Below, piece by piece: positions 4,754 to 17,595 of a DNA stretch of 33,255 nucleotides; the first letter of the stretch is position 1; each line of letters begins with the position of its first letter. The stretch lies in IMG/VR virus record IMGVR_UViG_2737471834_000009. The stretch is one strand, 5' to 3'. The position numbers and the translations under genes were made by a program. Source of the DNA: a virus. Taxonomy: Duplodnaviria; Heunggongvirae; Uroviricota; Caudoviricetes. Under the pieces are notes generated by a model. That model was not told where the DNA came from and did no database searches. It saw only the letters and a list, made by a program, of their open reading frames with translations.

Positions 4754-4811
4754 AAAAAGGGCGGCAGAGCAGTCACGGAGTAAAACTGATACCGCCAAAC
4801 GTCACCAGAAA
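4754..4811 (-). ncRNA. dicF: DicF small RNA (ftsZ-targeting sRNA) with intrinsic terminator
   Basis: Minus-strand sequence TTTCTGGTGACGTTTGGCGGTATCAGTTTTACTCCGTGACTGCTCTGCCGCCC followed by a T-run; GGCGG...CCGCC terminator hairpin; located between ydfC and dicB as in the Qin prophage. Confidence 0.8.
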
Positions 4812-10674: not shown

Positions 10675-10708
10675 GTGAAATTAGCTATCAGGCTTCAATT
10701 ACCGCTGG

Positions 10709-10727
10709 CATTCGCATCAAAGGAGAG
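10709..10727 (+). repeat. junction element copy 1 (CATTCGCATCAAAGGAGAG), carries the RBS
   Basis: Identical 19-mer recurs at 11639-11657 and 12133-12151, each 5-9 nt upstream of a start codon. Confidence 0.8.
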
Positions 10728-10731
10728 GTGC

Positions 10732-11088
10732 ATGGAAATAAAACCAGAAGATGAGTTAAGCAATATCGTTTTATTTCCGGTAAAAGAGGATGACCCTCGT
10801 AATCAGGTTAATTTTCTTTATGAGCCATCGGAAAGACCATATTGCCATCACGCTTCTGTCCGGGTTGACGAAAAAGAGCGTCAGGTCCGCTGTAAAATCT
10901 GCGGTGCAGTTGTGGAGCCATTTGACTGGATGCTCTCTGTGGCGAAAAGAGAAACCAGACTGGCAGATGATGTAAGGCTATTGCGCCAGGAGGAACAGGA
11001 AAGACGGAAAAATATAGAAAAGTTAATTCAGATTGAGCGTAACGCGAAAGCGCGGATACGCAGGGTGACAAAATCCAGAACTGAATAA
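10732..11088 (+). CDS. hypothetical protein (CHH...CxxC motif, basic C-terminus)
   Basis: 118-aa ORF MEIKPEDELSNIVLFPV... preceded by the junction element AAAGGAGAGG. Confidence 0.55.
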   Translation: MEIKPEDELSNIVLFPVKEDDPRNQVNFLYEPSERPYCHHASVRVDEKERQVRCKICGAVVEPFDWMLSVAKRETRLADDVRLLRQEEQERRKNIEKLIQIERNAKARIRRVTKSRTE

Positions 11089-11183
11089 TTAAATTTAGCA
11101 CTGTTAAAAATTCGATCCTTAACCGGAGGGATTTCTGCACCCTCAGAACATCAGGAGGCCGCCCGAAAGGGCGGTAACAAATA

Positions 11184-11660
11184 ATGCAAGAAATCAAAGA
11201 AAATATCAGGCAACAGCTTTACGGGTTTTATATTGCTTATGATTTGTGGCTGAAGAACGGGGCAAAACCCGGCGGAGTGTTTTCTCAAAATTATGGTTTA
11301 TGCGCCAATCTTTTCGATTATCTCACATTAATTGGTACCCCCTGTGAGGCAGCGCTGGAGCAATTACACGCTGATTTCAGAAGTGCCGGGCTGAATGAGG
11401 CGTTGCCGTTTAACGAGGGTAAAGAGCATTACCATGAAGAAAGAGGGCACAACATGTGCCATATGAATCCGGCACGAGTGGCGTGGGTCAGGGCGCAGAC
11501 AGGGCAGCCAGCGCCGGAAGGACTGGTTAAAGCGGTGCGCTTCTATGAACAGGTTAAGCGTGAAAATCCGCCAGTCGAAACCGGAGCATGGAAAGACGCT
11601 GTTGACTGGGTTCTCGAAGAGGCTTGTCAGGCTGTAAACATTCGCATCAAAGGAGAGTGA
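11184..11660 (+). CDS. hypothetical protein ending IRIKGE
   Basis: 158-aa ORF; the last six codons are encoded by junction element copy 2; SD is separated from the ATG by a GAAA-tetraloop hairpin. Confidence 0.6.
   Translation: MQEIKENIRQQLYGFYIAYDLWLKNGAKPGGVFSQNYGLCANLFDYLTLIGTPCEAALEQLHADFRSAGLNEALPFNEGKEHYHEERGHNMCHMNPARVAWVRAQTGQPAPEGLVKAVRFYEQVKRENPPVETGAWKDAVDWVLEEACQAVNIRIKGE
11639..11657 (+). repeat. junction element copy 2 (CATTCGCATCAAAGGAGAG)
   Basis: Encodes the C-terminal IRIKGE of the upstream gene and the RBS of the downstream gene. Confidence 0.8.
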
Positions 11661-11662
11661 GA

Positions 11663-12154
11663 ATGCAAATTTCACCGGTTACTCTTCGTGTTGCGAAGGC
11701 GTTTATATCCAGACATCACCGACACAATAAACCACCTGTTGGGCATAAATTCAGCATTGGTCTGATAAATGATGCCGGAGAATTGATAGGTGTGGCGACA
11801 GCTGGTCGACCTGTTGCACGACATTTGGACGATGGATTAACGCTTGAAGTAAATCGCACATGTACCACAGGAGAACGCAACGCTAACAGCGCGCTTTATG
11901 GTGCTGTCTGGCGAGCAGCAAAAGCTATGGGTTATCAACGTTGTATTACGTACACCCAGGCAGATGAATCAGGAGCATCTCTTCGCGCAGCTGGTTTTGT
12001 TCGTGTGAAAGAGCTTCCTCCAAGAAAAAGCTGGGCGGAATCAAGCGTCGCCTTGCGGAGTAAACGCGATCCGGTCGGAAACGGTGGTGTTCCTCGTGTG
12101 CTCTGGGAAATCAGGAGAATGAGTACCACTGGCATTCGCATCAAAGGAGAGTGA
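11663..12154 (+). CDS. hypothetical protein ending IRIKGE (possible small alpha/beta enzyme-like fold, unassigned)
   Basis: 163-aa ORF MQISPVTLRVAKAFISRHHRHNKPP...; translationally coupled to both neighbours; terminal codons encoded by junction element copy 3. Confidence 0.6.
   Translation: MQISPVTLRVAKAFISRHHRHNKPPVGHKFSIGLINDAGELIGVATAGRPVARHLDDGLTLEVNRTCTTGERNANSALYGAVWRAAKAMGYQRCITYTQADESGASLRAAGFVRVKELPPRKSWAESSVALRSKRDPVGNGGVPRVLWEIRRMSTTGIRIKGE
12133..12151 (+). repeat. junction element copy 3 (CATTCGCATCAAAGGAGAG)
   Basis: Same 19-mer; followed by TGA then ATATG start of the next gene. Confidence 0.8.
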
Positions 12155-12429: not shown

Positions 12430-13242
12430 ATGACCACTATTACCAAAGAGCGACTGCAATGGCTGGCTAACATTTCTGGCCGTGATGACATTGACGATAT
12501 AGACGGCGGTGAGATTCGTGAACAGGCACGAATTGCTCTGGCAGCGCTGGAAGTCGAGCCGATAGGTTTCCGTTGCAGGCGCAATGATAACCTTGGTGAT
12601 TGGAGTTACGTATATCATCGAGAGCCAGATGATTTTGAGCGCAAACATTTAGTGATAGAGGGCATTTACGCCGCCCCTCCAGCGCCAGTAGTACCGGAAG
12701 AAAAACCAATGCCTAATCCTCTTAGCATGTACGCGGTTGATGCTGTTGCCGCTATTGCAGAGGTGAGAGGCTGGAACGCCTGCCGCGCCGCCATGCTTCA
12801 GTCCGGAAACTTTCGGGAAAACAAGAATTCGTCAACCAATAATTTTCGGGAAATCGCGGAAACGTCAACCAACTCTCCGGTAATTCCTGATGAGGTGTTG
12901 TCCGCAATCCGGGAGGTTGCCAGGATTCGCGCCGATTTCGATGATTTTGACGGTGACAGGCGAGGTATCGGTGATTGTCTGGATGAGGCCGAGCAAGAGC
13001 TTATCGTTACCATTAACAAATATGCCAGTCAGTTGGCAGTAGAGCCGGTAGTACCTGATGACGTTCTGGAACAGACAGTAGCGTCGCCCGCGCCAGGTAA
13101 CCAGGTTAGCGAATTAACAATGTGGGTTAAGCGTCTGGCTCACTCCTTAAAGTACGCCAATAGCTTAAGCAGCTTGCCTGATAAGGCGATGGAGTATCTG
13201 AATCAGAATGGGCTGATAAGTGTGGAGGATGTTTTACGATGA
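12430..13242 (+). CDS. hypothetical acidic protein (possibly Ea22-like; unassigned)
   Basis: 270-aa ORF, acidic with D/E-rich segments, RBS AAGGAG before the ATG. Confidence 0.6.
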   Translation: MTTITKERLQWLANISGRDDIDDIDGGEIREQARIALAALEVEPIGFRCRRNDNLGDWSYVYHREPDDFERKHLVIEGIYAAPPAPVVPEEKPMPNPLSMYAVDAVAAIAEVRGWNACRAAMLQSGNFRENKNSSTNNFREIAETSTNSPVIPDEVLSAIREVARIRADFDDFDGDRRGIGDCLDEAEQELIVTINKYASQLAVEPVVPDDVLEQTVASPAPGNQVSELTMWVKRLAHSLKYANSLSSLPDKAMEYLNQNGLISVEDVLR

Positions 13243-13358: not shown

Positions 13359-13639
13359 GAAGGAAACAAAACAGAAACAACAATTGCCGTTACCTGTTGT
13401 TACCATGGCAAGTAAACGTATCTCAGGCGAGCGCATTGCGCCGTTCTGACGCAGATAAATTAGCCTGGATAGAAGGTGCTGGCAATAAAAAATAGCGTTT
13501 TCTTATCGGTGTCGGTAAGATTGCTGCGGGTGCTTGAGGCTGTCTGCCTCAGGCATGCCACTGTAAGGCAGACAGAGAAAAGCCCCAGTTAACATTATGC
13601 GTCCGGCAAGACGCTTAACATTAATCTGAGGCTCAATCT

Positions 13640-13852
13640 ATGAACGGCAAATCTAGGTTAGCCTCTTACGCGCCGAAAGGCAAGGAGAAGCAGGCTATGA
13701 AGCAGCAAAAGGCGATGTTAGTCGCCCTGATCGTCATCTGTATTACCGTCATTGTGACGGCACTGGTAACGAGGAAAGACCTCTGCGAGGTACGAATCCG
13801 AACCGGCCAGACGGAGGTCACTGTCTTCACAGCTTACGAACCTGAGGAGTAA
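13640..13852 (+). CDS. Mok-like reading frame (in-frame N-terminal extension of Hok)
   Basis: 70-aa ORF containing the hok frame, as in chromosomal mok/hok loci. Confidence 0.55.
   Translation: MNGKSRLASYAPKGKEKQAMKQQKAMLVALIVICITVIVTALVTRKDLCEVRIRTGQTEVTVFTAYEPEE
13697..13852 (+). CDS. hok: Hok/Gef family type I toxin
   Basis: 51-aa product MKQQKAMLVALIVICITVIVTALVTRKDLCEVRIRTGQTEVTVFTAYEPEE is near-identical to remembered HokD/RelF; mRNA leader has the tac-like hairpin GCTTGAGGCTGTCTGCCTCAGG. Confidence 0.85.
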   Translation: MKQQKAMLVALIVICITVIVTALVTRKDLCEVRIRTGQTEVTVFTAYEPEE

Positions 13853-17285: not shown

Positions 17286-17361
17286 GGCCCTTTAGCTCAG
17301 TGGTGAGAGCGAGCGACTCATAATCGCCAGGTCGCTGGTTCAAATCCAGCAAGGGCCACCA
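17286..17361 (+). tRNA. tRNA, anticodon CAU (ileX/ileZ-like tRNA-Ile2; tRNA-Met not excluded)
   Basis: Manual cloverleaf: acceptor GGCCCTT/AAGGGCC, anticodon loop CTCATAA, T-loop TTCAAAT, CCA encoded; close to remembered ileX. Confidence 0.8.
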
Positions 17362-17362
17362 A

Positions 17363-17439
17363 CCGCCACTAGCTCATCAGGAAAGAGCGTCAACCCTTTA
17401 AGTTGAGTGTGCGAGGTTCGAGTCCCCGGTGGCGGTCCA
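17363..17439 (+). tRNA. atypical tRNA, anticodon loop CCTTTAA (anticodon UUU, Lys-like, with C at position 33)
   Basis: Manual cloverleaf: acceptor CCGCCAC/GTGGCGG (C1-G72), D-loop with GG, T-loop TTCGAGT, CCA encoded; isotype uncertain. Confidence 0.55.
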
Positions 17440-17441
17440 GT

Positions 17442-17517
<76 letters not shown>

Positions 17518-17520
17518 TAT

Positions 17521-17595
<75 letters not shown>

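Follow-up and report, generated by a model that had tools for sequence, protein, structure and literature searches.

A candidate split ribosome-binding site on a portable intergenic cassette of lambdoid prophages

Introduction

How might a ribosome find the start of a gene whose only nearby Shine-Dalgarno (SD) sequence lies some 25 nt before the ATG, with a hairpin occupying the interval? This question is raised by an intergenic region in a 33,255-nt stretch of viral DNA (IMG/VR record IMGVR_UViG_2737471834_000009; the whole stretch that was analysed is referred to here as the window), in which the gene that begins at position 11184 is preceded by just such an arrangement. Only a handful of genes (bacteriophage T4 genes 25 and 38, thrS, and rpmE) are known to have split ribosome-binding sites, which have the standing of textbook curiosities. 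The mechanism is of a known kind, and what would be unusual at this locus is one split site serving many unrelated genes. Here we describe the anatomy, energetics, and distribution of the element, and argue that it probably initiates translation in the split (noncontiguous) manner of T4 genes 25 and 38, on a portable linker widespread in E. coli prophages.

Results

Prophage setting of the locus

The window is a Qin/Rac-like lambdoid prophage. In its closest annotated relative the genes run in the order integrase, exonuclease, dicB, ydfABC, repressor, cro, ydaT, replication genes, DUF1627, and DUF977, followed by the gene upstream of the element, the 158-aa gene downstream of it, XF1762, hokD, rusA, Q, tRNAs, lysis genes, and terminase; a Q gene is present and no N gene is annotated in this closely related prophage. 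All of the genes surrounding the element lie on the plus strand in the early rightward operon, so that the hairpin is present in the mRNA as written. Comparison with Rfam places the DicF sRNA at 4759–4810 on the minus strand and, on the plus strand, the sok antitoxin RNA of a hok/sok module (13528–13702) and a cluster of four tRNA genes (17286–17592). We note that a comparable four-tRNA cluster lies just downstream of the Q antiterminator gene in a related annotated prophage.

The gene upstream of the element (10732–11088, plus strand) encodes a zinc-ribbon-like protein (phrog_1621), as indicated by the list of open reading frames, by Pfam and PHROG matches, and by a 357-nt coding sequence called by PGAP in the relative. 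The longest open reading frame here begins with a GTG at 10675 (137 aa); however, the ATG at 10732 is preceded by an ordinary SD sequence, AAAGGAGAGG, and agrees with the 357-nt PGAP call, indicating that the real product is probably 118 aa long. Its TAA stop codon (11086–11088) falls within the first bases of the cassette described below. Neighbouring genes of the window likewise have ordinary SD sequences, 6–9 nt before their ATG codons.

The downstream gene (11184–11660, plus strand) specifies a predicted protein of 158 aa, for which there are PHROG matches. The protein is a mosaic, its last ~50 residues being a C-terminal module common to ead/Ea22-like proteins, and three relatives (P0002, P0009, and P0048) are 210 aa long with a different C-terminal extension, one that resembles the C-terminus of the window reading frame at 12430–13242. 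A second junction sequence, CATTCGCATCAAAGGAGAG, which is free of any hairpin, occurs exactly at 10709–10727, 11639–11657, and 12133–12151. At two of these three sites it encodes the C-terminus ...IRIKGE* of the preceding gene, and at all three it supplies an ordinary SD sequence, AAGGAG, 6–8 nt before the next ATG (10732, 11663, and 12156). With this sequence on one side and the cassette on the other, the 158-aa gene is bounded by two different conserved linkers.

A predicted hairpin between the SD sequence and the start codon

The sequence AGGAGG (11153–11158, plus strand) and the ATG (11184–11186) are separated by 25 nt (11159–11183), an interval too long for an SD sequence in linear mRNA. 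These 25 nt consist of CCGCCC GAAA GGGCGG (11159–11174) followed by TAACAAATA. The former can fold into a hairpin (hairpin 2) in which C11159–C11164 pair with G11169–G11174, giving six G-C/C-G pairs closed by a GAAA loop; a seventh pair, G11158·U11175, is possible, extends the hairpin to 11158–11175 ((G)CCGCCC GAAA GGGCGG(T)), and consumes the last base of the SD sequence, which otherwise lies directly 5′ of the hairpin. The preliminary description, made from the sequence of this DNA, had proposed a 7-bp stem that brings the SD sequence to about 8 nt from the ATG, and our reading agrees with it: the distance from the stem to the ATG is 9 nt, or 8 nt if G11158·U11175 forms. The single-stranded remainder, AACAAATA (11176–11183, plus strand; 9 nt if T11175 is unpaired), is A/U-rich and devoid of any SD-like motif.

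That description further held that AGGAGG is the sole SD sequence near this ATG, and it named a start at another codon as grounds for refutation; the sequence bears it out on both points. Apart from AGGAGG, a single SD-like tetramer occurs within 30 nt of the ATG: AAGG (11167–11170), located inside the loop and 3′ arm of hairpin 2, 13 nt from the ATG. The ATG at 11184 is the first start codon past an in-frame TAA (11175–11177), so the reading frame cannot start further upstream. PGAP calls the same 477-nt coding sequence with the same start in a prophage relative that is 94% identical, and all close homologues of the gene share the N-terminus MQEIKENI.

We considered whether the intergenic region might itself be translated. 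The frame of the upstream gene stays open for 31 codons past its stop (11089–11184) and ends in a TAA that overlaps the ATG (TAATG), and in other families of downstream gene the same or another frame also terminates at or on the start codon (TAAATG, ATGA, or TAATG). We rejected an upstream reading frame or translational coupling as a candidate: the open frame contains no ATG, GTG, or TTG, and 31 open codons are not unusual. Given the lack of a canonical start codon, the open frame is probably just a product of the A/T-rich composition of the spacer.

Folding calculations, the check that the preliminary description had called for, bore out hairpin 2. Folded alone, a 41-nt stretch adopts exactly this hairpin at -15.5 kcal/mol (z = -3.88), with none of 200 shuffled sequences as stable. 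Across 13 gene contexts its pairing probability is 0.93–1.00 in 11 and 0.39 and 0.76 in the remaining two, and the spacer has an unpaired probability of 0.92–0.95 in two relatives that carry the window gene. To put these values in terms of ribosome access we computed opening costs in a 181-nt context. Forcing the SD sequence (11153–11157) and the start region (11176–11199) to be single-stranded while the hairpin is free to form costs 4.35 kcal/mol, whereas forcing the whole of 11153–11199 to be single-stranded, with the hairpin melted, costs 20.1 kcal/mol; for a footprint without the distal SD sequence (11164–11199) the cost, again with the hairpin melted, is 17.4 kcal/mol. A melting cost of ~20 kcal/mol means that a ribosome requiring linear mRNA would meet a prohibitive barrier. 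If the ribosome does not accommodate the hairpin, there can be hardly any translation of the gene.

How unusual this arrangement is can be judged from a scan of 1.67 Mb of related phage loci for an SD sequence, a perfect hairpin, a gap of 4–12 nt, and an ATG opening a reading frame of 50 codons or more. The present cassette alone gave hairpins of -9 kcal/mol or stronger; the other matches were of -8 kcal/mol or weaker, each limited to one or two loci. Within these 1.67 Mb of related DNA, then, the SD-hairpin-ATG arrangement is essentially unique to the cassette.

Upstream hairpin and competing pairings

The preliminary description had also noted a second hairpin just upstream (hairpin 1; 11126–11144, plus strand), formed by GAGGG (11126–11130), a 9-nt loop, and CCCTC (11140–11144). 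This hairpin exists but is weak and of doubtful significance: at -7.2 kcal/mol (z = -1.34) it is not above chance, 21 of 200 shuffled sequences being as stable, and it is disrupted in the GGATGG variants of relatives.

In minimum-free-energy folds of longer stretches (112–181 nt), CCUC of hairpin 1 (11141–11144) pairs instead with GAGG of the SD sequence, and in several other gene contexts an upstream UCCU pairs with AGGA of the SD sequence. In the same folds the loop of hairpin 1, GAUUUCUGCA (11130–11139), is complementary, with one bulge, to UGCAAGAAAUC (11185–11195) around the start codon and codons 2–4. The unpaired probability of the SD sequence is only ~0.3 in one copy that precedes a gene of the window type (L065). 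These competing helices are 4 bp long or gene-specific and are cheap to open; weak as they are predicted to be, they leave room for a regulatory reading, to which we return in the Discussion.

The hairpin is part of a cassette found at mosaic joints

The element is not a peculiarity of one gene but part of a widespread, portable intergenic cassette of ~65–100 nt that is located at mosaic joints of lambdoid prophages. Alignments and pattern scans together yielded ~145 copies of the cassette core, ATCCTTAACCGGAGGGATTTCTGCACCCTCAGAACATCAGGAGGCCGCCCGAAAGGGCGGTA (11115–11176, plus strand), 50 of them distinct, with flanks that differ on both sides. Mean column identity among the 50 distinct copies is 96%. 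In all 50 the GGAG of the SD sequence (columns 41–44) is invariant, the variants seen being AGGAGA, AGGAGT, CGGAGG, and GGGAGA, and the 40 nt upstream of the SD sequence are as conserved as the SD sequence and hairpin 2 themselves. In one class of copies conservation begins further upstream, at CTGAATAATTAA (11081–11092, plus strand), the 5′ edge of a long form of the cassette. This block provides stop codons in all three frames (TGA at 11082, TAA at 11086, and TAA at 11090). Several upstream genes that are unrelated to one another have their last codon within it, and it is conserved behind them; most of these genes share one frame (...E-TAA).

The behaviour of the cassette is that of a boundary sequence: it has at least four upstream C-terminal contexts and six downstream gene families, and BLAST alignments break at its edges. 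When phage records are compared with the window, homology breaks at ~11132–11176, and the intergenic piece recurs alone. The core is present in 2355 of 5426 complete E. coli genomes (43%), at 2994 places and in up to five copies per genome, and is absent from the Rac, Qin, and DLP12 prophages of E. coli K-12. Among GTDB species representatives there were nine matches only, all in E. coli, Shigella, or probable contaminants, and a BLAST search of 50,697 phage records for divergent copies returned 19 records, all of them close, with the result that no deep alignment could be obtained. The cassette has no Rfam match at the gathering score, and at E values up to 10 there are two chance-level matches, both outside the element; the sequence of its hairpin is not printed in any of the papers searched.

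We used the 50 distinct copies to ask whether hairpin 2 is maintained by covariation. Paired cells make up 96.0% of the total, a value that 278 of 500 shuffles also attain; covariation is not significant because the copies, at 96% identity, are too similar. There is one compensatory change among the copies, from G-C to A-U (CCACCC..GGGTGG), and 20 of 350 stem-2 cells are unpaired. Changes from C to U that preserve G·U pairs are frequent in the 5′ arm, an excess that we considered as proof of RNA structure on the plus strand and set aside as unconvincing: counted by distinct events, ~7 changes preserve pairs and 9 disrupt them. In some natural copies the stem is weaker (CCGCCA..GAGCGG, for example, has -6.6 kcal/mol), and the occurrence of GAAA, GGCA, UAAA, and AAAA loops indicates that the identity of the tetraloop is not constrained. 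Conservation of the cassette could reflect recent spread rather than selection.

Six unrelated gene families start a short distance past the stem

Genes of six families with unrelated N-termini follow the cassette, and their start codons are confined to 6–11 nt past the stem, counted from the last G of GGGCGG to the ATG. The spacer is 6 nt in the MKHYLEKNYPRK/MVTLFRKKYPRK family (72 aa, phrog_1832), 7 nt in the MRKFKIIIE family (60 aa), 8 nt in the MLTLKHF family (43 aa), 8–9 nt in the Ea22-like MT/AELTKEQ family, 9 nt in the MQEIKEN family to which the window gene belongs (158 aa), and 11 nt in the ME/GITKERLL family (173 aa, with a Q-like domain by PHROG). In five of the six families the spacer is A/T-rich and without an SD-like motif. 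Only the MEITKER/MGITKER family has a GGAG of its own in the spacer, suggesting that the distal SD sequence is not indispensable everywhere.

Two sets of loci have additional features. At L036, L069, L124, L145, and L146 the cassette is followed by the 173-aa MEITKERLL/MGITKERLL gene, whose C-terminal part matches Q-like antitermination PHROGs (phrog_79 and phrog_943). At L141 and L151 it is followed by a 7-codon remnant of a MAEL... gene (ATGGCTGAACTAATCGGAGAATAA) and then by a new gene whose own SD sequence lies inside the remnant, which looks like the scar of a module replacement.

Homologues without the cassette carry their own SD sequences

Natural controls were sought by searching for relatives of the window protein irrespective of the sequence upstream. 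The full cassette precedes a homologue of the window gene at 12 loci. Homologues outside the cassette have ordinary contiguous SD sequences (AGGAGAGATTCACAATG, GGGGGAGTGAGATG, and AAGAGGTATTAAGAAATG); their starts read AGGAGAGATTCACA-ATG, with a 10-residue N-terminal extension, GGGGGAGTGAG-ATG, and AAGAGGTATTAAGAA-ATG. That cassette-free homologues carry their own SD sequences suggests that these genes need one. A further locus, L199, has unrelated sequence up to TCAGGAGG and retains the SD sequence, hairpin 2, TAATAAATA, and the ATG. Because L199 keeps only the SD sequence, hairpin 2, and the spacer, the unit that travels with the start codon is the SD sequence plus hairpin 2, not hairpin 1.

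Discussion

The arrangement at 11153–11186 has the geometry of a split translation initiation region: an SD sequence too distant in linear sequence (25 nt between G11158 and A11184), a hairpin that is predicted to fill the interval and to leave 8–9 nt, within the 5–11 nt appropriate to such a site, and a correctly assigned start codon with no rival SD sequence at a normal distance. The suggestion in the preliminary description that this is a split ribosome-binding site is strengthened by this T4-like geometry, by the energetics, by the six gene families, and by the cassette-free controls, but draws no support from covariation. That the ribosome uses AGGAGG across the hairpin we infer by analogy with T4 genes 25 and 38. 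On the reading that we consider probable, the GAAA hairpin, of 16–18 nt, would fold and remain folded in the early-operon mRNA made from the plus strand. A 30S subunit would then pair with the AGGAGG abutting the stem on its 5′ side and, with the hairpin looped out, the AUG, 8–9 single-stranded nt from the 3′ foot, would lie at a normal distance from the SD sequence, the hairpin acting as a rigid bridge that makes an SD sequence usable that is too far away in linear terms. The SD sequence, the hairpin, and the short A/U spacer are housed in the 65–100-nt intergenic cassette, whose long form opens with stop codons in three frames, and the cassette, which E. coli lambdoid prophages share at mosaic joints, would give an initiation signal to whichever accessory gene recombines behind it.

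A different account holds that the cassette is a mere recombination linker, or an mRNA-stabilising or processing hairpin, kept by recent spread and homologous exchange; the genes would be translated weakly from an unstructured, A/U-rich leader independently of the distal SD sequence, with the position of AGGAGG incidental or a relic. Homology does break exactly at both edges of the cassette, the taxonomy is narrow and the copies are ~96% identical, covariation is not significant, both the spacer and the first part of the coding region are rich in A and unpaired, a second, hairpin-free linker occurs three times in the same window, and the concept of short, conserved boundaries is an established one (PMC3029335). 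A pure linker, however, needs no consensus AGGAGG with an invariant GGAG abutting a stem, and it leaves unexplained the confinement of start codons to 6–11 nt past the stem in six families, the retention of just the SD sequence, hairpin, and spacer at L199, and the SD sequences that cassette-free homologues have of their own. We regard this account as unlikely, and note that a linker and a split translation initiation region are not mutually exclusive. The two can be combined in a more ambitious form, in which the cassette is a selected plug-and-play adaptor of E. coli prophages, a linker that ends any upstream frame and offers a hairpin-bridged SD sequence to any accessory gene. Translation might in addition be gated, either by the conserved upstream half of the cassette (hairpin 1 and the anti-SD-like UCCUU and CCCUC) or by a factor that binds the hairpin, such that sets of accessory genes share one post-transcriptional control. 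As a whole this extended form seems to us unlikely.

Control of the gene might instead be the primary role of the cassette. It would then be a translational switch or operator that gates the accessory gene, with UCCUU (11116–11120) and CCCUC (11140–11144) alternately sequestering the SD sequence and the loop of hairpin 1 closing on the start region, or with a phage or host protein binding the hairpin beside the SD sequence. The predicted pairings of CCUC or, in several other contexts, UCCU with the SD sequence and of GAUUUCUGCA with UGCAAGAAAUC around the AUG, as well as the conservation of the 40 nt upstream of the SD sequence, are what such a switch would lead one to expect. Yet the competing helices are short or gene-specific, and opening them takes only 4.35 kcal/mol in total; hairpin 1 does not exceed chance and is disrupted in common variants, L199 is without the whole upstream part, and no candidate binding protein was identified, all of which make a switch quite improbable. 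Highly improbable, in our estimation, is a signal at the level of transcription or DNA, whether an intrinsic terminator, an antitermination site of the nut (boxA-boxB) or put-like kind, or a DNA palindrome to which a protein binds. The G+C-rich stem with its GAAA loop does resemble λ boxB in outline, the stem is a perfect 6+6 palindrome, and UCCUUAAC resembles the boxA consensus of λ and rrn. An intrinsic terminator calls for a G+C-rich hairpin followed directly by a U-tract, and there is none on either strand, the stem being followed by UAACAAAUAAUG on the plus strand and by CCUCCUGAUG on the minus strand; a scan for terminators and promoters called nothing at the element. A nut site calls for boxB a few nt past boxA, close to a promoter, in a phage that encodes N. 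Here the boxA-like UCCUUAAC lies 36 nt upstream of the hairpin, the locus follows the replication genes, over 3 kb past the cro-side promoter region, and the related prophage type has a Q gene and no annotated N gene. The element has the hallmarks of neither. It also has no Rfam match even at E values up to 10, and none of these signals would explain the tight coupling of the hairpin to start codons.

If the cassette works in the manner of the T4 sites, it would be the most widespread natural split ribosome-binding site, so far unnoticed despite its presence, up to five times per genome, in 43% of the complete E. coli genomes, and it would mean that a split site can be modular, serving six unrelated genes. 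Programs that predict start sites or ribosome-binding sites and require a contiguous SD sequence would then misjudge the genes that the cassette drives. With its stop codons, SD sequence, and insulating hairpin, the cassette is also a compact candidate part for synthetic biology, and it gives the long-debated boundary sequences of lambdoid mosaicism a concrete example that is defined at the sequence level.

Comparison with known systems

Of the elements that the cassette resembles, boxB of the λ nut sites shares a short G+C-rich stem, a GNRA-type loop, and a place in an early phage transcript. Unlike hairpin 2, boxB has a pentaloop, lies 8–10 nt from boxA, is near a promoter, and needs N, and none of these features fits the cassette. 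The E. coli thrS and rpmE genes have been added to the class of sites named 'noncontiguous or split' (PMC7297116). They are like the present case in that the ribosome tolerates a stable stem-loop in the initiation region and in that the stem-loop arranges functional elements; they differ in that their stem-loop serves as the operator through which the product regulates its own gene and is located upstream of the unit spanning the SD sequence and the AUG.

Short conserved boundary sequences have been proposed to account for phage mosaicism (PMC3029335), and the cassette is akin to those of lambdoid phages in being a short conserved intergenic piece with non-homologous modules on both sides; at 60–100 bp it is long enough for homologous exchange. 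The boundary-sequence idea is, however, silent on RNA structure and translation, whereas the cassette also carries the stop codons of the preceding gene and the SD sequence and hairpin of the next.

The nearest parallels are in bacteriophage T4, where RNA structure between the SD sequence and the AUG shortens the distance from 22 to 5 nt in gene 38 and from 27 to 11 nt in gene 25, mutations that destabilise the stem lower translation initiation, and the split arrangement has been confirmed by lacZ fusions and DMS probing (PMC3014915). Gene 38 (Gold 1988, cited in PMC7297116 and PMC3014915) is like the present gene in having a hairpin between the SD sequence and the AUG, one that acts positively in T4 and would do so here, and unlike it in being a single gene of a virulent phage with no sequence similarity to the cassette. 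The likeness to gene 25 (Nivinskas et al. 1999; Malys & Nivinskas 2009; reviewed in PMC3014915) extends to dimensions: an SD sequence 27 nt away is brought to 11 nt by a hairpin of ~16 nt at an intercistronic phage junction, and here 25 nt would become 9 nt through a hairpin of 16 nt. The two sequences are nonetheless unrelated. The T4 element is tied to one junction, between genes 26 and 25, and mutagenesis, lacZ fusions, and DMS probing have established it, whereas the present element, known by prediction, is found in temperate lambdoid prophages and is common to six gene families.
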